Positions 8,560-63,865 of a stretch of DNA of 64,000 nt are shown piece by piece. The position numbers were made by a program, and so were the translations under genes. Below the pieces are notes generated by a model, which did not search any database, was not told the DNA's origin, and worked only from the letters and a program-made list of their open reading frames with translations. Positions within the stretch are counted from its first letter, which is position 1. The number at the start of each line of letters is the position of its first letter. Location of the stretch: contig CAVRAY010000001.1 in the NCBI GenBank assembly GCA_963719225.1, positions 320,001-384,000 of the forward strand. The letters are read 5' to 3'. The stretch comes from Thermoanaerobaculia bacterium (GTDB taxonomy: Bacteria > Acidobacteriota > Thermoanaerobaculia > UBA5066).

Positions 8560-9909
8560 CTACTTCCCGCCCGCGAAGATGGGCAGGGACGGCGCGGAGG
8601 GCGCGGGGGGAGCGATCGGCTCGTGCCCCGCGGGCGCGTCGGCCATGAGGACCGGCAGAATCTGACCCGTCAGCGGATTCCAGACCTTCACGCCCTCTTC
8701 CGTCCTGACCTCGAGCGGCTTTCGAATGAACGTCTCGCGCGCGGCGTTGTGCGCGCACATCGAGACGAAGCCGCGGTCGGTCGCGACCATGAACGTACAG
8801 GCGGCGACGCGCTCGGGATCGAGATCGTTCGCGTCCATGAAGTTGTGAATGATGAGCGTGAGCTTCCGGATCTCCTTCCGCCCCTCCCAGAGGGCGCGCG
8901 CGTGGCGCCCCGTGAACAGGACGAGCCGCTTCAGGATCAGGAAGAGAAAAGCCGGCCGCGCGAGGGACCAGAAGAGGACGCGCGCGCCCGTGCGGAAGGC
9001 ATTGATCCGCGAATAACGGAGGTCGGTCGTCTCGCGAATGATCGCCGCGAAGAGGGCCGCGTCCGTATTCAGGTCGAGGAAGCGGTCCTTCGCGAGAAGG
9101 ACGTAGGACACCGAGTTGCAATCCGGATGGCCGACGCGGATGTTGTCCCAGGAAAGCCCCGTCCCGCACGCCTCCTCGATGCGTCGGCGCACGTTCGGGA
9201 GCGTGATGGCGCTCGTCCTCTCGGTGAGGACGCCGCGTCCGGTCGCGGCCTGGATCTGGAACGAGGCGAGGCCCACGACGTCGGCGTTCTTCGAGAAGAA
9301 CCTCAGGAGGGCCGGAATCTCCGCGAGGTTGCCGTCGAAGACCGTCGTGTTGAAGATGACGTGAAGACCGAGGCCGCGCACCCTCTCGACGTACTCCTGC
9401 CGGATCGCGTTCAGGCTTTCTTCCGAAGCGTAGCCCTTGCGCTCCTGGGTGAGATCGACGTGGATGGCGACGTCCGTGAGTCCGGCTTCCTTCAGCTCCC
9501 GGGCGAGGTCTCGCGTGAGCTTGATGCCGTTCGTCATGAGCGAAGGCTCGAGACCGAGGTGAGCGGCTTCCCTCACGATCGCGACGAGCTCCTCGCGCTT
9601 GCGCAGCGTTGGGTCGCCGCCCGTGATCTGCACGCTCACGCCGTCTCCGTACCGTTCCCGCACGCGCGCGAGGCGCTCGAGGACGAGCGCGAGAGGGATG
9701 TCCTTGACCTTTTCGGACGACTCCGAGAGATAGCAGAGCGTGCAGTCGAGGTTGCAGCGTTGGGTGATCTCGACGGCGACGCATCCGACCGAATACCTTC
9801 GTCCGATGGCCTGCGCCGGGACGCGGAGCTTCGGGTCGAGCTTCTCGAAAGCCGCCTTCAGCTTCGCGCGCCGGCCGGGGAGGTCGTCGAAGACAGGGAG
9901 TCCTTCCAT
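8560..9909 (-). CDS. Radical SAM protein, Tes/MJ0619-related C-terminus
   Basis: CNLDCTLC, TGGDPT, MTNG; C-terminal HPDC...FMD...RVAAC...SMCAHN. Confidence 0.88.
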   Translation of the reverse strand: MEGLPVFDDLPGRRAKLKAAFEKLDPKLRVPAQAIGRRYSVGCVAVEITQRCNLDCTLCYLSESSEKVKDIPLALVLERLARVRERYGDGVSVQITGGDPTLRKREELVAIVREAAHLGLEPSLMTNGIKLTRDLARELKEAGLTDVAIHVDLTQERKGYASEESLNAIRQEYVERVRGLGLHVIFNTTVFDGNLAEIPALLRFFSKNADVVGLASFQIQAATGRGVLTERTSAITLPNVRRRIEEACGTGLSWDNIRVGHPDCNSVSYVLLAKDRFLDLNTDAALFAAIIRETTDLRYSRINAFRTGARVLFWSLARPAFLFLILKRLVLFTGRHARALWEGRKEIRKLTLIIHNFMDANDLDPERVAACTFMVATDRGFVSMCAHNAARETFIRKPLEVRTEEGVKVWNPLTGQILPVLMADAPAGHEPIAPPAPSAPSLPIFAGGK

Positions 9910-45223: not shown

Positions 45224-47083
45224 TTAGTTCGCGTGCGCTCGCAACGCGACGCCGGCGGCGACCACCAGGAGCAGACCGAGGAGCCCCAGCGCCCATGGCT
45301 GCAACGTTGGAACGTCCGTCGGCGCCGCACCGACCGGAATCACCGTGACGCTCGCCGACGCGGTGTCGCCCGCCCCGCCTTCGACCGAAGTCACGGCGCC
45401 GGAGACGTTGTTCTGCGTTCCCAGCGTCGTACCGGTCGCGTTCACGCCGAAGTTGCACGAGGCGCTCGCCGCGAGCGTCGCGCCCGCCAGGCTGACGGCA
45501 CCCGACCCGGCAATCGCCGTGATCGTGCCTCCACCGCAGCTCCCTGTGAGTCCGTTCGGAGTCGAGACGACGAGACCCGCCGGTAGCGTGTCGGTGAAGC
45601 CGACGCCGGTCAATGCCGTGGAAGAGTTGGGATTGTTGATCGTGAAGCTGAGCGAGGTCGACCCGTTCAGCACGACGGTCCCTCCGCCGAAAGACTTTGC
45701 GATCGTCGGCGGCGCGACAGCAGCCGCGACCGTCACGCTCGCCGAGGCCGTCCCGCCCGCACCGCCTTCGACCGAAGTCACCGCACCGGTCCCGTTGTTC
45801 TTCGTTCCCGTCGTGGTGCCGATCACGTTCACGCTGAAGGTACACGAGGCACTCGGCGCGAGCGTCGCGCCCGCCAGGCTGACGGCACCCGACCCTGCGG
45901 TCGCCGTGATCGTCCCGCCGCCGCAGCTGCCCGTGAGCCCGTTCGGGGTCGAGACGACGAGGCCCGCCGGCAACGTGTCGGTGAAACCGACGCCGGTCAA
46001 CGCCGTTGAAGCATTGGGGTTGTTGAGCGTGAAGCTGAGCGAGGTCGACCCGTTGAGCGGAATGCTCCCAGCACCGAAGGTCTTCGCGATCGTCGGCGGC
46101 GCGGTGGCGGCGCCGGTCGTGATGCGCCCGATCCGGTCGAGATTCTCTTCCGTGAACCACAGGTTGCCGTCGGGGCCGGCCGTGATGCCCTCCGGCCCGG
46201 CGGGGGCGGTGAGGCCGGCGCTGAACTCGGTGACGACTCCGGCCGGGGTGATGCGCCCGATCCGGTTGCCGCCTTCTTCCGTGAACCACAGGTTGCCGTC
46301 GGGGCCGGCAGTGATGCCGCGAAGCCCGGCGCCGGCTGTGATGCCAGCGCTGAATTCGGTGACGACTCCGGCCGGGGTAATGCGCCCGATCCGGTCGCTG
46401 CTGTTTTCCGTGAACCACAGGTTGCCATCGGGGCCGGCCGTGATGCCGTAGAGCCCCGCGTCGGCGGTGATGCCGGCGCTGAACTCGGTGACGACTCCGG
46501 CCGGGGTGATCCGCCCGATCCGGCTGACGTCGGCGCTTTCCGTGAACCACAGGTTGCCGTCGGGCCCTGCCGTTATGCCGAAAGGGGTCGAGCCGGGGCT
46601 AATGCCGGCGCTGAACTCGGTGACGACTCCGGCCGGCGTGATCCGTCCGATTCCGTCGGGATTGATTGTGAACCACAGGTTTCCATCCGGTCCGGACGTG
46701 ATGGAGCAATTTGGGTTGCCGGAGAGGCCGGCCGTGACCTCGGTGATGACGCCGAGGGGGGTGATCCGCCCGATCCGGTTGCCGCTCTCCGTGAACCACA
46801 GGTTCCCGTCGGGGCCGGCCGTGATGCCGCAAGGCGCCACGAAGCCGGCAGGGGTGAACTCGGTGACGACGCCGAGCGGAGTGATCCGCCCGATCAGGTT
46901 GCCGCCTTCTTCCGCGAACCACAGGTTGCCGTCGGGGCCGGCGGTGATTCCGAAAGGCGACGCGAACGGGCTGATGCCGGCGCTGAACTCGGTGATGACC
47001 TGGGCGTGAGCCGTACCGCTGAAAAGCCCGAGCAGGGCGAGAAACGCCGCCGTCGGCGCAGAGAGTCTGAGAAGACGCTGCAC
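45224..47083 (-). CDS. Surface protein: 7-bladed Vgb-like propeller + two Ig-like domains + IPTL-CTERM signal
   Basis: AAGGAGG RBS + GTG 47083, signal peptide, 7x GPDGNLWF, 2x PPTIAKxFG domain, VPTLQPWALGLLGLLL...R tail. Confidence 0.88.
   Translation of the reverse strand: MQRLLRLSAPTAAFLALLGLFSGTAHAQVITEFSAGISPFASPFGITAGPDGNLWFAEEGGNLIGRITPLGVVTEFTPAGFVAPCGITAGPDGNLWFTESGNRIGRITPLGVITEVTAGLSGNPNCSITSGPDGNLWFTINPDGIGRITPAGVVTEFSAGISPGSTPFGITAGPDGNLWFTESADVSRIGRITPAGVVTEFSAGITADAGLYGITAGPDGNLWFTENSSDRIGRITPAGVVTEFSAGITAGAGLRGITAGPDGNLWFTEEGGNRIGRITPAGVVTEFSAGLTAPAGPEGITAGPDGNLWFTEENLDRIGRITTGAATAPPTIAKTFGAGSIPLNGSTSLSFTLNNPNASTALTGVGFTDTLPAGLVVSTPNGLTGSCGGGTITATAGSGAVSLAGATLAPSASCTFSVNVIGTTTGTKNNGTGAVTSVEGGAGGTASASVTVAAAVAPPTIAKSFGGGTVVLNGSTSLSFTINNPNSSTALTGVGFTDTLPAGLVVSTPNGLTGSCGGGTITAIAGSGAVSLAGATLAASASCNFGVNATGTTLGTQNNVSGAVTSVEGGAGDTASASVTVIPVGAAPTDVPTLQPWALGLLGLLLVVAAGVALRAHAN
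45341..46102 (-). repeat. Two direct repeats with 387-bp period (Ig-like domains)
   Basis: 45341-45715 and 45728-46102 nearly identical. Confidence 0.9.
46115..47000 (-). repeat. Seven ~120-129-bp tandem propeller-blade repeats
   Basis: Recurrent GAACCACAGGTT.CC.TC.GG.CC on the + strand. Confidence 0.9.
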
Positions 47084-48771: not shown

Positions 48772-48801
48772 TTGACATATCAATATTAGTTGATATATAT
48801 T
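48772..48801 (+). promoter_or_regulatory. ars promoter with ArsR operator
   Basis: TTGACA...TATATT enclosing ATCAA-TATTAG-TTGAT (48779-48794). Confidence 0.85.
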
Positions 48802-48807
48802 GCCGCC

Positions 48808-49202
48808 ATGGCAGGACCAGCCATCCCGGCTAGGAGATTCCGAGAAAGACTTGATGTGGGACGCCTTGCGCGGCTGTTCCATGCGCTTTCGGACGAGACA
48901 CGGCTGAAGATCGTCGAGCGGCTGCTTAGCGGTGAGCAGTGCGTCTGCAACCTCATGGAACCACTAGGTTTAGGGCAATCTCATCTGTCGTTTCACATGA
49001 AGACCCTGAAAGACGCCGGGCTTGTGACCGATCGCCGAGCCGGTCGTTGGATCCACTATTCACTCAAGCCGGGAACCCTCGAGGAGATTCAGGAGTTCCT
49101 CGGGACGGTCGGGAAAAGGCCGCCCAGCTGGAGGCGGCACGGTGCTGCGAGAAGGATAAGAAAGAGTCGCCGGGACAGCTTTATGGTTTCTCTATCTTCT
49201 AA
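48808..49202 (+). CDS. arsR: ArsR/SmtB repressor, probable frameshift ~49111-49117
   Basis: ALSDETRL, EQCVC As-binding box, QSHLSFH, GRWIHY; shifted frame ends AARCCEK...stop 49202 (unshifted frame runs to 49254). Confidence 0.88.
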
Positions 49203-49204
49203 GA

Positions 49205-49220
49205 ATCAAAAAATCTTGAT
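49205..49220 (+). promoter_or_regulatory. Second ArsR operator upstream of arsM
   Basis: ATCAA-AAAATC-TTGAT. Confidence 0.78.
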
Positions 49221-49235
49221 TGAATGGAGCCTGCC

Positions 49236-50059
49236 ATGTCAGAAACGAACCTGAAGGACATCGTGAAGGAGAAATACGGCGAGGCCGCCAAGCGCGCGTC
49301 GACGGGCGGCAGCGCTTGCTGTGGAGGGGCTTCCGCGATCGCCGGGGCGAAGGATCCCATCACGTCGAATCTCTACGGCGCCAACGAGACGCTCGGCCTT
49401 CCCTCCGCGGCGGTCTCGGCTTCTCTCGGCTGCGGCAATCCGACGGCGCTCGCCGAGCTCCATGAAGGCGAAACGGTCCTCGACCTCGGCTCGGGCGGCG
49501 GCATCGACGTCCTGCTGTCGTCGCGGCGCGTCGGACCCGCGGGGAAGGTCTACGGCCTCGACATGACGGACGAGATGCTCGCGCTCGCGCGGGAGAACCA
49601 GGGGGGCGCGCGCGTCACGAACGTGGAGTTCCTGAAGGGCGAGCTCGAGAACATTCCCCTTCCCGACGGGAGCGTCGACGTCATCATCTCGAACTGCGTC
49701 ATCAACCTCTCGGCCGACAAGGACCGCGCCCTGTCCGAGGCGTTCCGCGTCCTGAGGCCGGGCGGCCGGTTCGCGGTCTCCGACGTCGTCGTACGCGGCG
49801 CGGTCCCCGTGGAGGTGCGCCGCGAGCGTCGAGCTCTGGATCGGCTGCCTCGCCGGCGCACTCGAGGAGAAGGAGTTCGACGCCAAGCTGACGAAGGCCG
49901 GATTCGACCGGCGTCGAGATCGTCCCGACGCGCGTCTACGACGTCGACGACGCGCGCGACTTCCTCGCGGCGGCCGGAATCGATGCGGACGCGCTCGCTC
50001 CCCAGGTGGACGGGAAGTTCATGAGCGCGTTCGTGAGGGCCACGAAGCCGGCTGCCTGA
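49236..50059 (+). CDS. arsM: Arsenite methyltransferase with two apparent +1 insertions (~49822, ~49908)
   Basis: SACCG, SLGCGNP, LDLGSGGG, SNCVINL; other frames give LWIGCLAGAL and SAFVRATKP; length 824 = 3n+2. Confidence 0.9.
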
Positions 50060-50068
50060 GGCCGAGCC

Positions 50069-51136
50069 ATGGGAACCTTCGAGCGCTTCCTCTCGCTCTG
50101 GGTCGCCCTCTGCATGGCGGCGGGCGTCGCGCTGGGCACGCTGTTTCCGGGCGCAGTTGCCGCGCTGCGCGGGCTGGAGCTCGGCGAGGGAAGCCACGTG
50201 AACGCGGCGATCATGGTCCTGATCTGGCTCATGGTCGCGCCGATGATGGCGAGGATCGACTTTCCGGCCATTCGCAACATCGGGCGGGAGCCGCGCGGGC
50301 TCGCCGTCACGCTCTTCGTGAACTGGCTCGTGAAGCCGTTTTCGATGGCCTTCCTCGCCTGGCTCTTCTTCCGGCACGCCTTTGCCGCGTGGATCGCCCC
50401 CGCGGTGGCGGATCAGTACATCGCCGGAACGATCATTCTCGCCGCAGCGCCCTGCACGGCGATGGTCTTCGTCTGGAGCGCGCTCACGCGCGGCGACCCG
50501 GCGTACACCCTCGTCCAGGTGGCCCTGAACGACCTCGTGATGCTCGTGCTGTTCGTCCCGATCGTGCGCTTCCTCGTGCGCGGGGCGTCTTCTCTCGAAG
50601 TCCCGATGCGCGTGCTCGTCACGTCCGTCGTCGCGTTTCTCGTCGTCCCGCTCGCCGTCGGAATCGTGTTACGTGCGTGGGCCATCGCGCGGCGCGGAAA
50701 GGTCTGGCTCGAAGGCACGCTGCTGCCCCGGCTCGCGCCGGTCACGGTCGCCGCGCTCCTCCTGACGCTCGTCGCCATCTTCGCGTTCCAGGCGGACAAC
50801 GTGCTGGGGAAGCCTCTTCACGTCGTCCTCATCGCGGTTCCCATCCTGCTGCAGGTCTACTTCAACTCGGCCCTCGCCTACGGTCTCATGAAGGCGGCCG
50901 GCGTCAGGCATGCGATCGCGGCCCCGGGCGCGCTCATCGGCGCAAGCAACTTCTTCGAGCTCGCCGTGGCCACCTCGATCGCGCTTTTCGGGCCCGAGTC
51001 GGGAGCCGCTCTCGCAACCACCGTCGGTGTTCTCGTCGAGGTGCCCGTCATGCTCTCCGTCTGCGCCGCGTGCAACCGCACGCGCGCCTGGTTTCCGGCT
51101 CCCGGCATGGCCCATGCGGCCGGAGGCCCCCTGTGA
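50069..51136 (+). CDS. acr3: ACR3 family arsenite efflux transporter
   Basis: FERFLSLWV, NWLVKPF, APCTAMVFVW, ASNFFELA, VLVEVPVML. Confidence 0.96.
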   Translation: MGTFERFLSLWVALCMAAGVALGTLFPGAVAALRGLELGEGSHVNAAIMVLIWLMVAPMMARIDFPAIRNIGREPRGLAVTLFVNWLVKPFSMAFLAWLFFRHAFAAWIAPAVADQYIAGTIILAAAPCTAMVFVWSALTRGDPAYTLVQVALNDLVMLVLFVPIVRFLVRGASSLEVPMRVLVTSVVAFLVVPLAVGIVLRAWAIARRGKVWLEGTLLPRLAPVTVAALLLTLVAIFAFQADNVLGKPLHVVLIAVPILLQVYFNSALAYGLMKAAGVRHAIAAPGALIGASNFFELAVATSIALFGPESGAALATTVGVLVEVPVMLSVCAACNRTRAWFPAPGMAHAAGGPL

Positions 51137-51543
51137 AAGCCCGAGGACTCCTCTTCCTGTGCGTCGCGAACTCGGCTCGAAGCCAGATCGCCGAGGGACT
51201 CGCCCGCGCGCGCTTCGGGGACGCGGTGCGCGTCCAGAGCGCCGGCTCGGACGCCGCGGGCGTGAACCCGCTCGCGGTGAAGGTCCTGGCGGAGCTCGGC
51301 ATCGACATCTCCTCACAGGCCTCCAAGACCGTCGATACGATCGATCCCGCGACCGTCGACACGGTCGTCACCCTCTGCGCCGAGGAGGTCTGCCCGGTCT
51401 TCCTCTCGAAGGCGCGGCACCTCCACTGGCCTCTTCCGGACCCGACGGCCGGAGGCGGAACGGAGGAGGAGCAGCTGGAGCGTTTCCGCCGGACGCGGGA
51501 CGAGTTGAAGCTCCGAATCGACTCGTTCGCGATTCTTACTTGA
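51133..51543 (+). CDS. arsC: Thioredoxin-type (LMW-PTP fold) arsenate reductase
   Basis: LFLCVANSARSQ, TLC...CP, HWPLPDP, FRRTRDE. Confidence 0.93.
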   Translation: MKARGLLFLCVANSARSQIAEGLARARFGDAVRVQSAGSDAAGVNPLAVKVLAELGIDISSQASKTVDTIDPATVDTVVTLCAEEVCPVFLSKARHLHWPLPDPTAGGGTEEEQLERFRRTRDELKLRIDSFAILT

Positions 51544-52622
51544 CGATCTGATAGACGAGCGCGCGAGGAGCCCGCCACCGGCAGCGTGACGAGCCACGCG
51601 AGGAGCATCTCGCGGACGGTCCGCCACTGGATCCGGCTCTCCTTCGACTCGGCCCCGATCCCGATGATCGCCCCCGAGGACACGTGCGTCGTCGAGACGG
51701 GAAGCGCCCAGAAGGAAGCGGCGCTCACGAGCGCGCGAGGTCGTGAGGTTCGCGAGGAGGCCGTCGTCGTGGCCGATGCGTGTGACCTTTCGCGCGAGCG
51801 TCTCCGTCACGCGGAAGCCCCCGAGGAAGCTGCCGAGGCTCATCGCCACGGCGACGAGCGCGTAGAACCCGAACGCGCGAGATGCCGAAACCGGCCGTCG
51901 CCGCGATGCCGAGAGCGAGGATCTTCGGCGTGTCGTTGAGCCCGCGGAAGAAGCTCGTCGCACCCGCCGAAGTCCAGTGCAGCGAGTCGAGGAGCGCCCA
52001 CGCGCACAAGCGTCTCGGGCGGGCAGTCGGATGAGGCGACGAGGTCCAGCGTGGGGAGGGGAGACGCGAACGCCACGCCGGCCGCCGCGGGAACGGGCTC
52101 CCGCCGCTCGACGCAGACGCAGAACCGGTGCGCGCGGCGAAAGACGGGGAGAACGGCGGGCGCGAGGAGCAGCACGATCGCGGCGGAGATCACGGGCGAG
52201 AGCGCGAGCGGCAGCGCAACCTTCTTCGCGACCGCCGCCCAGGCGACGCCCGGGGCGCCCGACGCGGCGAGACCGGCGCCGCAGAGGGCGCCCGGCAAGC
52301 GCATGCGTCGTCGAGACGGGAAGCCCCGTGCGGGTCGCGAAGAGAAGCCACCCGATCGCGCCGCAGGCGACCGAAAGGAGAAGAGCGTTGCCGCTTCCGG
52401 CGGATTCACGAGGAGCCCCTTGCCGCTGAAGGTCGCGACGAGTCCCTGAGAGAAGAATGCGGCCACGAGTCCTCCCGCGAGCGTCCACGCCGTGCCCCAC
52501 GCGACCGCGGTCCGGTACCTGGTCGTTCCCGAGCCGACGAGCGTTGCGATGCCCTTCGACACGTCGTTCGCGCCGTTCGCGAACGCGAGGCCGAGCGTCA
52601 GGAGAACGAGGACGACGCCCAT
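51536..52622 (-). CDS. PiT-family inorganic anion transporter, multiple frameshifts
   Basis: FANGAND, GLPVSTTH, RGLNDTPKI, LPVSTTHVSSG motifs spread over three frames; TGATG coupling with the upstream gene. Confidence 0.8.
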
Positions 52623-55120
52623 CAACAGCAGCTCGTCCCGTCGGCGCCCGGCGCGCAGCACGCGTAACCGGCGCGCTCTTCACCCGGCTCGAGGATCGCG
52701 AAGAAGCCCTGGTACGGGGGATGCGAGAGCTTCGCGACGGTGTCGGTGCAGATTTCGTAAGGCTCGTTGCGCGGGAACTGGTGACCCTCCTCGTCGACGA
52801 AGGCCTTGCCAGGCCCGAGGTAGACGGCGCGATGGCCCTGGAAGACGCAGCCTGAGGTCTTCTCGAACTTGAAGCCCCGTACCGTGACGGAGAAGAAGGG
52901 ATATCCCTCGACGTCCTTCCAGTAGCTCTTTTTCAGGATCTCGAGGCCGTAGAACCCGGCGCGTTCGAGGCCGGCGAGGAAGCCCTCCTGCGTGAGCGCG
53001 CCTACGAGGCACTCGCCCCACAGCCGCGGGTTCGTCTTGAGGTGCGGCGGCACGTCCTCTTCCGAGACGATGTCCGAGATCACGATGCGCCCGTGATCCT
53101 TCAGGACACGCCAGATCTCCTCGAAGACGCGCGGCTTGTCGGGCGAGAGGTTCACGACGCAGTTCGAGGTGACGAGGTCGACGGTTTTCGATTCCACGGG
53201 GATCTTCTCGAGGAACCCTTCGCGGAACTCGACGACGTCGTATCCGAGCGCCGCGGCCACGATCGGCTTGTTCTCGTGCGCGACCGCCAGCATCCGGTCC
53301 GTCATGTCGACGCCGATGGCCTTCCCCGTTCCTCCGACGAACTTCGCCGCGATGAAGACGTCGATGCCCGCCCCCGAGCCGAGGTCGACGACGGTCTCGC
53401 CTTCCCGGATTCCGGCGGTCGTCATGGGCGAGCCGCACCCGTAGAAGCGGTCGATCACGTCCTTGGGGATGTGGGAAACCGCCGCGTCGTCGTATTTCGT
53501 CGGGCAGCACAGCTCGGGCTGCGGCGTCTCGGCCGCGGCGCCGTAGAACTCGCGCATCTTCGCGCGCGGCTTGTCGACGTCGAACGAGAGGACGCAGTTG
53601 GAATGAAGCGTCAGCACCGCCTTCTCGGCGAGCGTTCCGTCGGCGGTTCCGCAGGCGATCGCGCCTTCTCCCATCGCATGGAGGACGAGCGGCGCGTCGT
53701 ATCCGGAACGCACGTTCCGCCGTCCTCTCTTCTCGCGGCCGAGGTCGGTCATGACCCTCTTCGTGAGCGCGACGGAGATCGGGTAGTAGGGATCGTCGCC
53801 GAGGAAGTCTCCGCCGGAGAAGCACCACGCGTGCTCGAGATCCCCGCCGCCCGTGAAGAAGCGGAAGGGATCGCCGTTCATCGACGGCTTCCGGGCGAGC
53901 GTGGCGGCCCGAAGCGTCCTGACGATCGGCGACGTTTCGAGGACCTCGCGAAGATCCTGCCGCGAGACGTCGCCGCAGACGAGCGCCGGCTCGTTCGCGA
54001 GGGCCGCGGTCGGGTAGACCTTGCCGTCCGCGTACACGCAGATCGAGTCCCAGCCGGCGTTTCCGAGGTCGTACTTGACGCCCGGGACGCCGTTCACGCG
54101 GCGCTTGATCGCCTCGAGGTTGTCGAGCGTGGTTCCCTCGCGTGCCGCGGCATCCGCGACGGCGAGAACTGCCTTGAGGAGAAGGACGTTCTCCGGAAAG
54201 AAGCCGTTTCCGCTCTCGAGCGCACGGCCGCGCCGGTGGCTCCACATGAGGTGCTGGCTCTTCGCGCCGACGCGCTTGACGAGGGCGGGGATCTCGACGA
54301 GCTCGGAGAGGTTCTCCTCGGTCGTGACCGTCGTCAGGGAGACGTCGAAGCCCATGTCCGCGAGGAGCTTCGCGCCGTCGAGAGCCTTCACGAACGTGCC
54401 GCCTCCGCGGATCGGGTCGTTCGTCTCCGGGCGCGCGCCGTCGAGGGAGACCTGGAACTTCACGCGGGAACGATCGAGCGATTCGAGGCCATTCTTCACG
54501 GCGCCCACGAAGACGGTCGCGTTCGTGAGGACGATCATCTCGGCCCCGTGGGTCTCGGTGGCGCGCTTCGCGAGATCGAAGAGATCCTTCCTCAGGAACG
54601 GCTCCCCGCCCGTGACGTAGAGGCGTTCCATCCCGAGCTCGGCCGCGCGGTCGACGAGCTTCGCGAGGGCGGCGGGATCGATGCCCGGCGCGCCGCCGGG
54701 CCCCGACGAGACGAGGCAGTGCGTGCAGGTGAGGTTGCAGGCGTTGTTGATCTGCAGCCACAGCTCCCGAAGTCCCGACGGCTCGATGAGAGCGGCGCGG
54801 CCGGGGTATGGCGCCCGGGCGAACGGGGCGTCGTGCAGCATGCCCGCGCGGTCGAGGGCGCGGAGGAAGCCGTGGACGTGGACCCATGCCTTCCCCGCCT
54901 CGAGCTGGTGATCCGCGGCCCAGCGCGCGACGCAGGTTCCGAACGCGAGAGGCGCGCCGGCCTCCTCCGCGGTCCGAATCGCGCTGAGCAGCTCTCCGCC
55001 GCGCGCGTCGACGGCGATCCAGTTCGGCGCCTCGGGGTCGACGGCATAGAGGACGTCGTCCTCGGTGAACGTGTGGAACGCGGGCAAGTGGAGCGGAGTC
55101 CGCTCCGCGAGAACGGTCAT
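52622..55120 (-). CDS. Radical SAM-ArsM-type methyltransferase fusion
   Basis: CNLTCTHC, TGGEP, LTN, SLDG; then LCCP, YGCGSP, DLGSGAG, SNCVVNL, WGECLVGA, C-terminal SCC; GGAGG RBS. Confidence 0.92.
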   Translation of the reverse strand: MTVLAERTPLHLPAFHTFTEDDVLYAVDPEAPNWIAVDARGGELLSAIRTAEEAGAPLAFGTCVARWAADHQLEAGKAWVHVHGFLRALDRAGMLHDAPFARAPYPGRAALIEPSGLRELWLQINNACNLTCTHCLVSSGPGGAPGIDPAALAKLVDRAAELGMERLYVTGGEPFLRKDLFDLAKRATETHGAEMIVLTNATVFVGAVKNGLESLDRSRVKFQVSLDGARPETNDPIRGGGTFVKALDGAKLLADMGFDVSLTTVTTEENLSELVEIPALVKRVGAKSQHLMWSHRRGRALESGNGFFPENVLLLKAVLAVADAAAREGTTLDNLEAIKRRVNGVPGVKYDLGNAGWDSICVYADGKVYPTAALANEPALVCGDVSRQDLREVLETSPIVRTLRAATLARKPSMNGDPFRFFTGGGDLEHAWCFSGGDFLGDDPYYPISVALTKRVMTDLGREKRGRRNVRSGYDAPLVLHAMGEGAIACGTADGTLAEKAVLTLHSNCVLSFDVDKPRAKMREFYGAAAETPQPELCCPTKYDDAAVSHIPKDVIDRFYGCGSPMTTAGIREGETVVDLGSGAGIDVFIAAKFVGGTGKAIGVDMTDRMLAVAHENKPIVAAALGYDVVEFREGFLEKIPVESKTVDLVTSNCVVNLSPDKPRVFEEIWRVLKDHGRIVISDIVSEEDVPPHLKTNPRLWGECLVGALTQEGFLAGLERAGFYGLEILKKSYWKDVEGYPFFSVTVRGFKFEKTSGCVFQGHRAVYLGPGKAFVDEEGHQFPRNEPYEICTDTVAKLSHPPYQGFFAILEPGEERAGYACCAPGADGTSCC

Positions 55121-55169
55121 CGCCAACCTCCTGGAACTTCGCGGGGGTTTCTCGTGCGGGAGAGGGGCT

Positions 55170-55862
55170 TCAGGCGGCGGCCGGGGCGGGAGGGGCGCGC
55201 GCGGGCGCGACCGGGCGGAACCCGTGGGTGAACGCCGGACGGACGCGCGCGGGAGGGGCGGGGACGGGACGAAGCGAAACGAGGAGCGTCGCGAGCGCGG
55301 GATCCAGGTCCGGCCCCGACGCGAGCACCGCGAGGTCGGACGGGCGATCCACGTCGAGGAGCGGGTCCAGCAGGGCCGCGCCGGGCGCGTTGCGGAGGAG
55401 AGCCCAAAAGACGCCCGCCGTCCGCCACGGCACTTCTTGGAAGAGTCCCGAAAGGTCGGTTGCCGCGCGCGACCCGATCAGCCAGACGCCGCCGTCCGGG
55501 GACGGGCCGAGCACGATCTCCCGCGTTTCGAGCGCGAGGAAGGCGGCGGCCAGCTGCGCTTCGCAAAGGCCGGGGACGTCTCCCGGCACCGCGACGATCT
55601 CCGAGTAGCCGCGCGCGCGCGCGTCCTGGAAGGCGTTCTTCAGGCGTTCGCCGAATCCGCGGCCGCGCTGCGGCAGGACGCTCGCCCGTTCGTGCGAGAG
55701 GCCTTCACCCGCGACGACCAGGTCGACTCCGAGAGTCCGCGTCACGTCGGACACGCGCCGCATCGAGAACGCGAAGAGCCGGCCGCCGCCCGGCATTCTC
55801 TTCATCGCCCCTTCGCGGAGAGGGGACCTCGAAAACAGCAGGACGCACCGGGATGGGCTCAC
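55170..55862 (-). CDS. DUF2064/TIGR04282-like (CofC-fold) transferase
   Basis: QRGRGFGERL, PGDVP, VLGPSPDGGVWLIG, FQEVPW, LLDVD. Confidence 0.85.
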   Translation of the reverse strand: MSPSRCVLLFSRSPLREGAMKRMPGGGRLFAFSMRRVSDVTRTLGVDLVVAGEGLSHERASVLPQRGRGFGERLKNAFQDARARGYSEIVAVPGDVPGLCEAQLAAAFLALETREIVLGPSPDGGVWLIGSRAATDLSGLFQEVPWRTAGVFWALLRNAPGAALLDPLLDVDRPSDLAVLASGPDLDPALATLLVSLRPVPAPPARVRPAFTHGFRPVAPARAPPAPAAA

Positions 55863-55984: not shown

Positions 55985-56012
55985 TGAAACCTTTTCGGAC
56001 CGATTGCGTCTT
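55985..56012 (+). promoter_or_regulatory. ECF-sigma-type promoter
   Basis: TGAAAC-N16-CGTC upstream of 56063. Confidence 0.5.
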
Positions 56013-63562: not shown

Positions 63563-63865
63563 TCAGAGCAGGATCGACCACGCGCGTCTGCCGTGAAGCA
63601 CCCGATAGACCCAGACGACGCGTCCAGAGACCTTGAAGAAGTTCAGGTAGGGCTGCCGGACGAGGAACCGGAATCCCCGCCGGCGGAGATGCTCGTCCCG
63701 AGGGCGGGAACCGCGCTCCGGCCACCGGGCGAGGCCCTCGATGGCGTCGAGCAGATCGCCGACGATTCGGCCGGCCGATTCCGGAGCTTCGTGGCCGAGG
63801 TAAGAGCGAAGCTCGACGAGGTCACTCTCCGCCCGCTTGAGAACGCGGACGCGATGGGTCTTCAA
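63563..63865 (-). CDS. RelE/ParE family toxin
   Basis: AESDL...L.R.PERG...R...Y..F...V.V.RVLHG. Confidence 0.88.
   Translation of the reverse strand: MKTHRVRVLKRAESDLVELRSYLGHEAPESAGRIVGDLLDAIEGLARWPERGSRPRDEHLRRRGFRFLVRQPYLNFFKVSGRVVWVYRVLHGRRAWSILL

Follow-up and report, generated by a model that had tools for sequence, protein, structure and literature searches.

Two radical S-adenosylmethionine (SAM) enzymes that form C-As bonds, ArsS and ArsL, were found in the literature searched, and both are partnered by the methyltransferase ArsM. ArsS works together with ArsM in Synechocystis (passages of PMC8552651). It adds an adenosyl radical to dimethylarsinite, after which the electron of the arsenic radical goes back to the SAM cluster, making the reaction redox-neutral (passages of PMC13598754). 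ArsL, according to bioRxiv 2024.02.01.577332 and 2026.04.29.721666, has a C-terminal cysteine motif that binds As(III), holds no extra cluster, and is needed for product. Here we describe a gene that joins a radical SAM module to an ArsM module in a 64,000-nucleotide stretch from a Thermoanaerobaculia bacterium (GCA_963719225.1, contig CAVRAY010000001.1, positions 320,001 to 384,000; hereafter the window). The fusion appears to work like ArsS plus ArsM yet lies outside the ArsS family. Drawing on genomic evidence and structure models, we put at roughly 0.6 the probability that it is a one-chain equivalent of ArsM and ArsS that makes dimethylarsinoyl-adenosine, the arsenosugar precursor. To the known systems this locus adds a three-way swap in one chromosomal slot, a staged loss of auxiliary clusters, and a conserved cysteine tail. 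The literature search found no paper on the fusion, with the proviso that subscription journals and supplements could mention such proteins, and it is not described in the passages available of PMC12159101, PMC13188914, PMC10456119, and PMC8124187.

The fusion gene lies whole and uninterrupted in the window. Its likely start is the ATG at 55120, also the start in the earlier note made from the letters of this stretch, because an AGGAGG sits 6 nucleotides upstream. Residues are numbered here from an upstream TTG at 55126 (834 amino acids), so that each number is that of the structure model plus 2. The parts of the gene are as follows.

52622..55120, minus strand: fusion gene (RiPP recognition element [RRE], radical SAM, degenerate SPASM, cysteine tail, ArsM); intact open reading frame, 832 amino acids from the ATG
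55127..55132, minus strand: AGGAGG ribosome-binding site, read in the sequence
54827..55120, minus strand: RRE/PqqD-fold domain of three strands and three helices, from folding alone, Foldseek, and Pfam
54107..54772, minus strand: radical SAM core, about residues 119 to 340; Pfam PF04055, 82.6 bits
53729..54079, minus strand: SPASM fold with all seven cluster cysteines substituted, from structural matches and alignment to a relative
53582..53695, minus strand: tail of the radical module, C492 plus H508-x-x-C511, a candidate arsenic-binding element, from conservation in aligned rows
52682..53581, minus strand: ArsM/AS3MT-type methyltransferase with its C-terminal domain; NF008823, 232.6 bits; ArsM matches in the PDB at E 1e-40
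52625..52669, minus strand: flexible C-terminal CC...CC arm, from conservation in close rows; predicted local distance difference test (pLDDT) under 50

An AlphaFold2 model built with 128 sequences has a pLDDT of 92 and a predicted TM-score of 0.91. Together with structural matches and profiles, it bears out the architecture of RRE, radical SAM, SPASM, and ArsM parts that the earlier note had read from the sequence; the pathway was not identified there. Pfam recognizes the radical SAM and methyltransferase domains and, weakly, SPASM, while the best NCBIfam matches are arsenite methyltransferases, with all radical SAM families far under cut-off. The family is large, with 1744 matches at E<=1e-20 among 7997 candidates scored. 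Its best 120 homologues are 72 to 91% identical, almost all of full length, and annotated merely as methyltransferase or radical SAM/methyltransferase. Close relatives occur in Thermoanaerobaculia and Gemmatimonadota, and an ESM Atlas lookup returned generic radical SAM/SPASM clusters only.

What ties this protein to ArsS? One line of evidence is positional. This genome, 97% complete in 2 contigs, yielded neither TIGR04169 nor an ArsS match that passes the cut-off. Each of the 12 genomes of the genus carries exactly one of three modules, the fusion in 4, ArsS in 5, and a short third type of radical SAM enzyme in 3, mostly in one chromosomal slot. TIGR04169 plus ArsS occupies the slot of the fusion in 4 of the 5 ArsS genomes. 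In one of these, G176, DNA similarity to the window ends at 51454 and resumes at 55985, with flanks that match on both sides; between them lie 1.6 kb with TIGR04169 and ArsS, against 4.5 kb with a TIGR04282-like gene, the fusion, and a PiT transporter in the window. The other three genomes hold the third module in the slot, two contiguously and one split over two contigs. Because the fusion shares its slot with the ArsS of close relatives, it likely makes the arsenosugar precursor by a second route.

The same exclusion is seen at a wider scale, in genome samples whose members are related and not independent (so that p-values overstate) and in which absence means not found. Among 201 genomes of the class, 33 carry the fusion family and 52 carry ArsS, with both in 2 (8.5 expected); both of these have a long form ending in DUF5714, and none is among the 25 genomes with the ~830-amino-acid form. 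At least one of the three modules is present in 129, and two are present in 7 (25.8 expected). These class tallies take in three unpublished genomes (G004, G175, and G179), and G175 is among the seven double carriers. In one family of the class (f5), 47 of 48 genomes carry one of the three modules. Among 201 Gemmatimonadota, the fusion family is found in 15, ArsS in 20, and the short type in 29, and none of these 64 carries two (6.1 expected). Among 201 Nitrospirota, the numbers are 9 for the family, 136 for ArsS, and 3 for both (6.1 expected), and the three closest members occur without ArsS. DUF5714 forms make up three of the five co-occurrences with ArsS.

The fusion and ArsS also keep the same company. 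We define a cassette of TIGR04282, TIGR04283, VTT, MerA-like, and DUF547 genes, sought within 6 kb at loci of at least 8 kb with profiles built from these clusters. One or more of its genes is found at 62 of 94 fusion-family loci and 14 of 27 ArsS loci, some loci being redundant. It is seen with forms of every kind: two-cluster, one-cluster, cluster-less, and DUF5714. The two systems resemble each other in pairing a radical SAM enzyme with an ArsM whose arsenic cysteines are intact, in having the cassette and a PiT transporter, and in the slot. The family has an arsenosugar-type context of ArsM with TIGR04282/TIGR04283, a label that is NCBIfam's naming of these families and that rests on association only. 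TIGR04282 is present in 128 of the 129 class genomes with any of the three modules. We rejected it as specific evidence when taken alone, as it is found in 158 of the 201. Overall, gene context and the exclusion with ArsS strongly support a link of the fusion to arsenic.

Nature has also joined ArsS to ArsM directly. In Nitrospirota, 12 ArsS matches lie in frames of ~660 to 720 codons, and in the five that were examined (L129 to L133) an ArsM domain follows ArsS directly in each. Two of the five are single open reading frames, and four have cassette genes. These natural fusions share with ours the domain order and a Cys-rich end: they have an AS3MT-type end with a small closing Cys motif, and the TIGR04282/TIGR04283/VTT/MerA-like cassette.

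The methyltransferase half is of the ArsM type. The top 12 Foldseek matches are all ArsM/AS3MT, and model residues 535 to 814 align with algal ArsM at Z 28.1 (root mean square deviation 6.9, 278 residues aligned), giving a class I methyltransferase fold followed by the AS3MT C-terminal domain. The family profile NF008823 scores 232.6 bits on the fusion, just below its cut-off of 263; one relative, P0170, exceeds it with 273. With ArsM/AS3MT (algal 4fr0 and 5evj, human 8xt7) the module shares its fold, its C-terminal domain, and the places of four cysteines, the difference being that it ends a multidomain radical enzyme. The four-conserved-cysteine rule of ArsM (passages of PMC8552651) applies in full. 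In the alignment to the solved algal ArsM, C72, C174, and C224 fall on C564, C656, and C706 of the fusion, and in the Chlamydomonas enzyme the cysteine near the N terminus matches C540/C541. For C540/C541, C564, C656, and C706, conservation in close rows is, in order, 185/185, 185/185, 182/183, and 182/183. The claim that the arsenic-binding cysteines are retained thus stands, and so does that of a tail ending ACC...SCC: C823 is kept in 170/176 close rows, C824 in 160/176, C833 in 174/176, and C834 in 173/175. The WIGC of the neighboring ArsM, which had served the earlier note for comparison, is in a shifted frame, that gene being frameshifted here.

How might a single chain carry out both steps? 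As the context suggests, the coupled PiT or Pst transporter would bring arsenate into the cell, where ArsC would reduce it. By homology, the ArsM module would hold As(III) at C540/C541, C564, C656, and C706 and methylate it twice with SAM. The C492/C511 tail might then keep the dimethylarsinite at the barrel, with the CC...CC arm possibly handing it over. Cleavage of SAM at the single predicted [4Fe-4S] cluster would yield a 5'-deoxyadenosyl radical that adds to arsenic, and the arsenic radical would return its electron to the same cluster, as in ArsS. Auxiliary clusters would be dispensable because the electron can go back to the SAM cluster in this way. Proteins of the TIGR04282/TIGR04283 type, by association, may act downstream. 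We regard methylation by the ArsM module as strongly indicated, an adenosylated product as moderately so, and the tail as arsenic carrier, with channeling between the halves, as a weak proposal. Fusion of the halves would not be required in any case, since stand-alone and reverse-order radical forms exist. Another apparent stand-alone form, L067, was dropped, its gene ending at a contig boundary.

The cysteine tail, which the earlier note did not mention, closes the radical module in the stand-alone and reverse-order forms as well, and it therefore belongs to the radical half. Among cluster-less rows, C492 is present in 249/253 and C511 in 249/252; the corresponding numbers are 17/17 and 16/16 in one-cluster rows and 21/25 and 26/26 in two-cluster rows. 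C492/C511 is a better candidate than the ArsM cysteines for the arsenic carrier of the radical site. Where does the tail sit? Position 509 is Cys in 26/26 two-cluster rows versus 14/269 others, which suggests, subject to phylogenetic confounding, a place near the first-cluster site. Covariation over 359 rows (effective number ~203) gave weak tail pairs and did not place it. Structural alignments to nucleotide-bound viperins and BlsE extend to model residues 513 to 519, and that to apo viperin ends near 400, hinting in the model that the tail could lie over the barrel. The tail of viperin acts as a lid of this kind. By analogy, the role of the tail may be like that of the motif in ArsL. In the arsinothricin pair of ArsL and ArsM (NF040542), the radical SAM enzyme likewise has one cluster and a cysteine tail and works with ArsM; the fusion differs in lacking the RCCLKC motif and any family match, and in its gene context. 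NF040542 itself gave three weak matches elsewhere in this genome and none at the fusion gene.

The remainder of the radical half resembles peptide maturases. The CxxxCxxC motif (residues 130/134/137; 54716-54739) lies on a partial TIM barrel typical of radical SAM enzymes, with its three cysteines kept in 182/182 rows that cover them; CxxxCxxC, GGEP, and barrel residues are close to invariant in the family. The best structural match of model residues 13 to 464 is CteB (5wgg; Z 30.4, root mean square deviation 4.5, 411 residues aligned), and matches to CteB and anSME reach residues 464 to 488. A SPASM fold is thus present, as had been proposed, although the Pfam profile PF13186 falls just below its cut-off (18.4 versus 21.5 bits). 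The canonical motif has seven cysteines split over two clusters (passages of PMC5715301). In the fusion, G355, T373, M416, D419, T425, D429, and Y448 align on the seven cysteines of a 36%-identical two-cluster relative, with Cys at 0/7 positions. The description of the domain as cysteine-less is therefore right for the ligand positions and wrong overall: C363, C384, and C435 remain in non-ligand places and are conserved in close relatives only.

The same proposal held that the auxiliary clusters were lost or replaced. Loss is conserved. Among 337 distinct aligned rows, a set in which close relatives are overrepresented and some outside SPASM enzymes are present, both ligand sets are present in 56, only the second in 19, only the first in 3, and neither in 259. 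Replacement has some support in the alignment: D429 occurs in 278/278 rows without first-cluster ligands and H432 in 263/278, and the pair may form a new site in place of the first cluster. In a core-only tree, 16 rows with first-cluster ligands split from 28 without (support 92); an earlier tree took in the cysteine columns and was partly circular. A single origin of second-cluster loss gave a p of 0.46 in the approximately unbiased (AU) test. Two-cluster forms already carry ArsM: among 110 representatives, 9 have it in the same order and 3 in reverse. In the same set, DUF5714 was added in 28 cluster-less forms. Forms of ~1050 amino acids that end in DUF5714 were seen at L092 to L097, L100, L101, L126, and L142, with C540/C541 missing in many rows. 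Two-cluster relatives (P0270, P0152, P0150, P0157, and P0177) are joined to DUF2064, TusA, non-ArsM methyltransferases, or a reverse-order ArsM.

The N terminus completes the likeness to peptide enzymes. Its first 110 residues folded alone reach a pLDDT of 95.5, and the top Foldseek matches are TbiB1, PqqD, a lasso B1 protein, CteB, and TigE, so that the supposed PqqD/RRE-like start is confirmed. The best match has an E of 2.6e-3 at probability 1.00, with none at E<=0.001, and the template modeling score to target is 0.68 to 0.76 for stand-alone RREs. The Pfam PqqD cut-off is passed by 3 of 20 proteins scanned, all three relatives of the fusion. Compared with CteB, SkfB, TigE, PqqE with PqqD, and anSME, the fusion shares the fold of residues 13 to 464 and the RRE topology; it differs in lacking the seven SPASM cysteines and a nearby precursor peptide, and in being joined to ArsM. 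An RRE-dependent maturase should have a co-encoded precursor, and none was found within 1.2 kb: 310 candidates on the coding strand around full-length family genes included no conserved small open reading frame, a reach that a distant precursor would escape. Recurring small frames were rejected as precursors, being fragments of neighboring genes. The RRE is likely structural or vestigial. Did a peptide-maturase scaffold, then, become an arsenic enzyme? Such a history would place C492/C511 in the barrel where the peptide lay, follow a two-stage cluster loss with D429/H432 as a new site, make the family one of three interchangeable radical SAM solutions (129/201 genomes), and have arsenic taken up deliberately, often through a phosphate-type importer coupled to the module, to build a metabolite and not for detoxification. 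As a whole, this sequence of steps is doubtful.

The reading of the fusion as an ArsM plus ArsS equivalent draws on the slot swap, the exclusion, the shared cassette, the natural ArsS-ArsM fusions, and the kept ArsM cysteines. Several findings weigh against it. The ArsS profile TIGR04167 reaches 61.8 bits, over residues 117 to 262 only, against a cut-off of 300, and ArsS sits on a long separate branch. Double carriers exist: G042 and G070 combine ArsS with a DUF5714 form, G051 and G175 combine the fusion with the short type, and ArsS is also present in 3 of the 9 Nitrospirota genomes that have the family. All three enzymes are missing from 30 of the 158 TIGR04282-positive class genomes, and all five cassette genes from 32 of the 94 fusion loci. 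This genome has no TIGR04283 over cut-off, a separate arsM adjoins the fusion, and the role of the RRE has no explanation. P0150 and P0157, both two-cluster proteins, carry methyltransferases without arsenic cysteines, and P0152 carries TusA; substrates may vary across the family, because some two-cluster relatives have such partners. Finally, what exclusion shows is that a role is shared; the products need not be identical. The fusion may possibly, then, form C-As bonds in the role of ArsS and release something else: a monomethyl adenosyl-arsenical, an ArsL-like aminocarboxypropyl adduct, or the product of H abstraction from a methylarsenical. Identity to ArsS is only 27% over 175 residues, H292, D335-N336, D353, D429, H432, C492, and C511 have no counterpart in the ArsS consensus, and the tail is reminiscent of ArsL. 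Compared with ArsS, the fusion also has an RRE, a full SPASM fold, and a tail of its own, and it lacks DUF3641 and its cysteines (PF12345 has no match in the fusion at E<=0.1 and scores 168 bits on a true ArsS). TIGR04169 is found at 0/94 fusion loci versus 16/27 ArsS loci. A different product is nonetheless a tentative idea, as the common slot and downstream cassette are explained most simply by the same product, and the ArsL-type profile does not match the fusion gene.

Could the radical half have nothing to do with arsenic? A role as a peptide or protein maturase, with its own chain as one possible substrate, would account for the RRE, which is kept and modeled with high confidence, and for best structural matches that are peptide maturases; a TusA fusion and SenA/GrdB-like neighbors at a few loci could point to Se, S, or Sb instead. 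We consider this unlikely: no conserved small frame was found within 1.2 kb of the family genes, the clusters used by such maturases are gone, and the exclusion, with ArsS and with the RRE-less short type alike, would be left unexplained. More improbable still is that the radical module is a decaying or structural passenger on a detoxifying ArsM, as the loss of seven cysteines and the adjoining ars resistance operon in this genus might suggest. Such a passenger would hardly keep its CxxxCxxC, GGEP, and barrel residues nearly invariant or gain new invariant residues where the first cluster was lost. Stand-alone radical forms, moreover, adjoin TIGR04282 (L139, L141, and L150), and most family loci outside the genus have no acr3 or arsC nearby.

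If the family does replace ArsS, a large part of the organoarsenical producers escapes surveys that rely on arsS, ArsS accounting for 52 of the 129 class genomes with a module. One chain would apply both polar and radical SAM chemistry to the same arsenic atom. Within one gene context, the family also offers members with two, one, and no auxiliary clusters, a natural series in which the role of SPASM clusters becomes testable.

The third occupant of the slot is itself a candidate for a third arsenic radical SAM family. Besides a TIGR04282 paralogue, its module has an ABC importer similar to transporters of 2-aminoethylphosphonate, a radical SAM enzyme of 294 residues that scores under every NCBIfam cut-off, and a metallophosphoesterase (L225:569-8869, L226:4269-10459, and L227/L228, in G009, G112, and G019). 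The short type occurs in 51/201 class genomes and 29/201 Gemmatimonadota, and it almost never shares a genome with ArsS or the fusion. It aligns with ArsS end to end, closing cysteine pattern included, and in its core it is nearer to the fusion family than to ArsS (profile E of 5e-47 versus 3e-18). In the tree it groups with the fusion family (support 98), and P0205, P0215, and P0222 fall inside that family. With ArsS on a long branch, the AU test (p 0.60) neither establishes nor rejects a clade that unites ArsS with the short type and the fusion family. At 20 further short-type loci there are 6 with ArsM, 7 with TIGR04169-like genes, and several with TIGR04282 or Pst genes; at some loci Pst genes come after arsM.

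Around the fusion, the window holds these neighbors.

55170..55862, minus strand: TIGR04282/DUF2064-like gene, upstream of the fusion, a divergent second copy in the genome; 90 bits versus a cut-off of 134
51536..52622, minus strand: PiT/PHO4 phosphate-type transporter, downstream of the fusion, frameshifted; intact in relatives
48790..51543, plus strand: convergent ars operon of arsR, arsM (frameshifted), acr3, and arsC, from Pfam and NCBIfam

The main TIGR04282 copy lies elsewhere in this genome. The ATG of the PiT gene overlaps the fusion stop (TGATG). The arsM at 49236-50060 has at least 2 frame changes and the PiT gene at least 4; relatives are intact, so that assembly errors or decay may be responsible. 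Over the window and 68 related loci, recurring neighbors are PiT (31), TIGR04282 (30), a MerA-like reductase (14), VTT (12), DUF547 (8), TIGR04283 (8), and Pst genes (8 per cluster). Pst genes lie directly downstream of the fusion at nine loci, none with PiT (L008, L009, L018, L024, L025, L037, L039, L043, and L061). None of ten markers was found at 25 of the 94 family loci, and no plasmid match was found. A lookup of sequencing runs listed no RNA run (best share 0.21), and these runs were left unused.

Some minor observations remain. In another family of the class (f14), TIGR04282 is present in 29/29 genomes and any of the three radical SAM types in 5, so that a fourth partner or another role is possible. 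At L182, a more distant family member directly follows a TIGR04169-like gene, the sole such case seen. SenA/EgtB-like genes, and elsewhere GrdB-like genes, recur near the fusion (L013, L016, L044, L051, and L068). Farther away in the window, all on the minus strand, are an unrelated radical SAM gene (8563-9909), a gene for a virginiamycin B lyase-like repeat protein with DUF7933 (45227-46972), and a ParE toxin gene (63566-63865).

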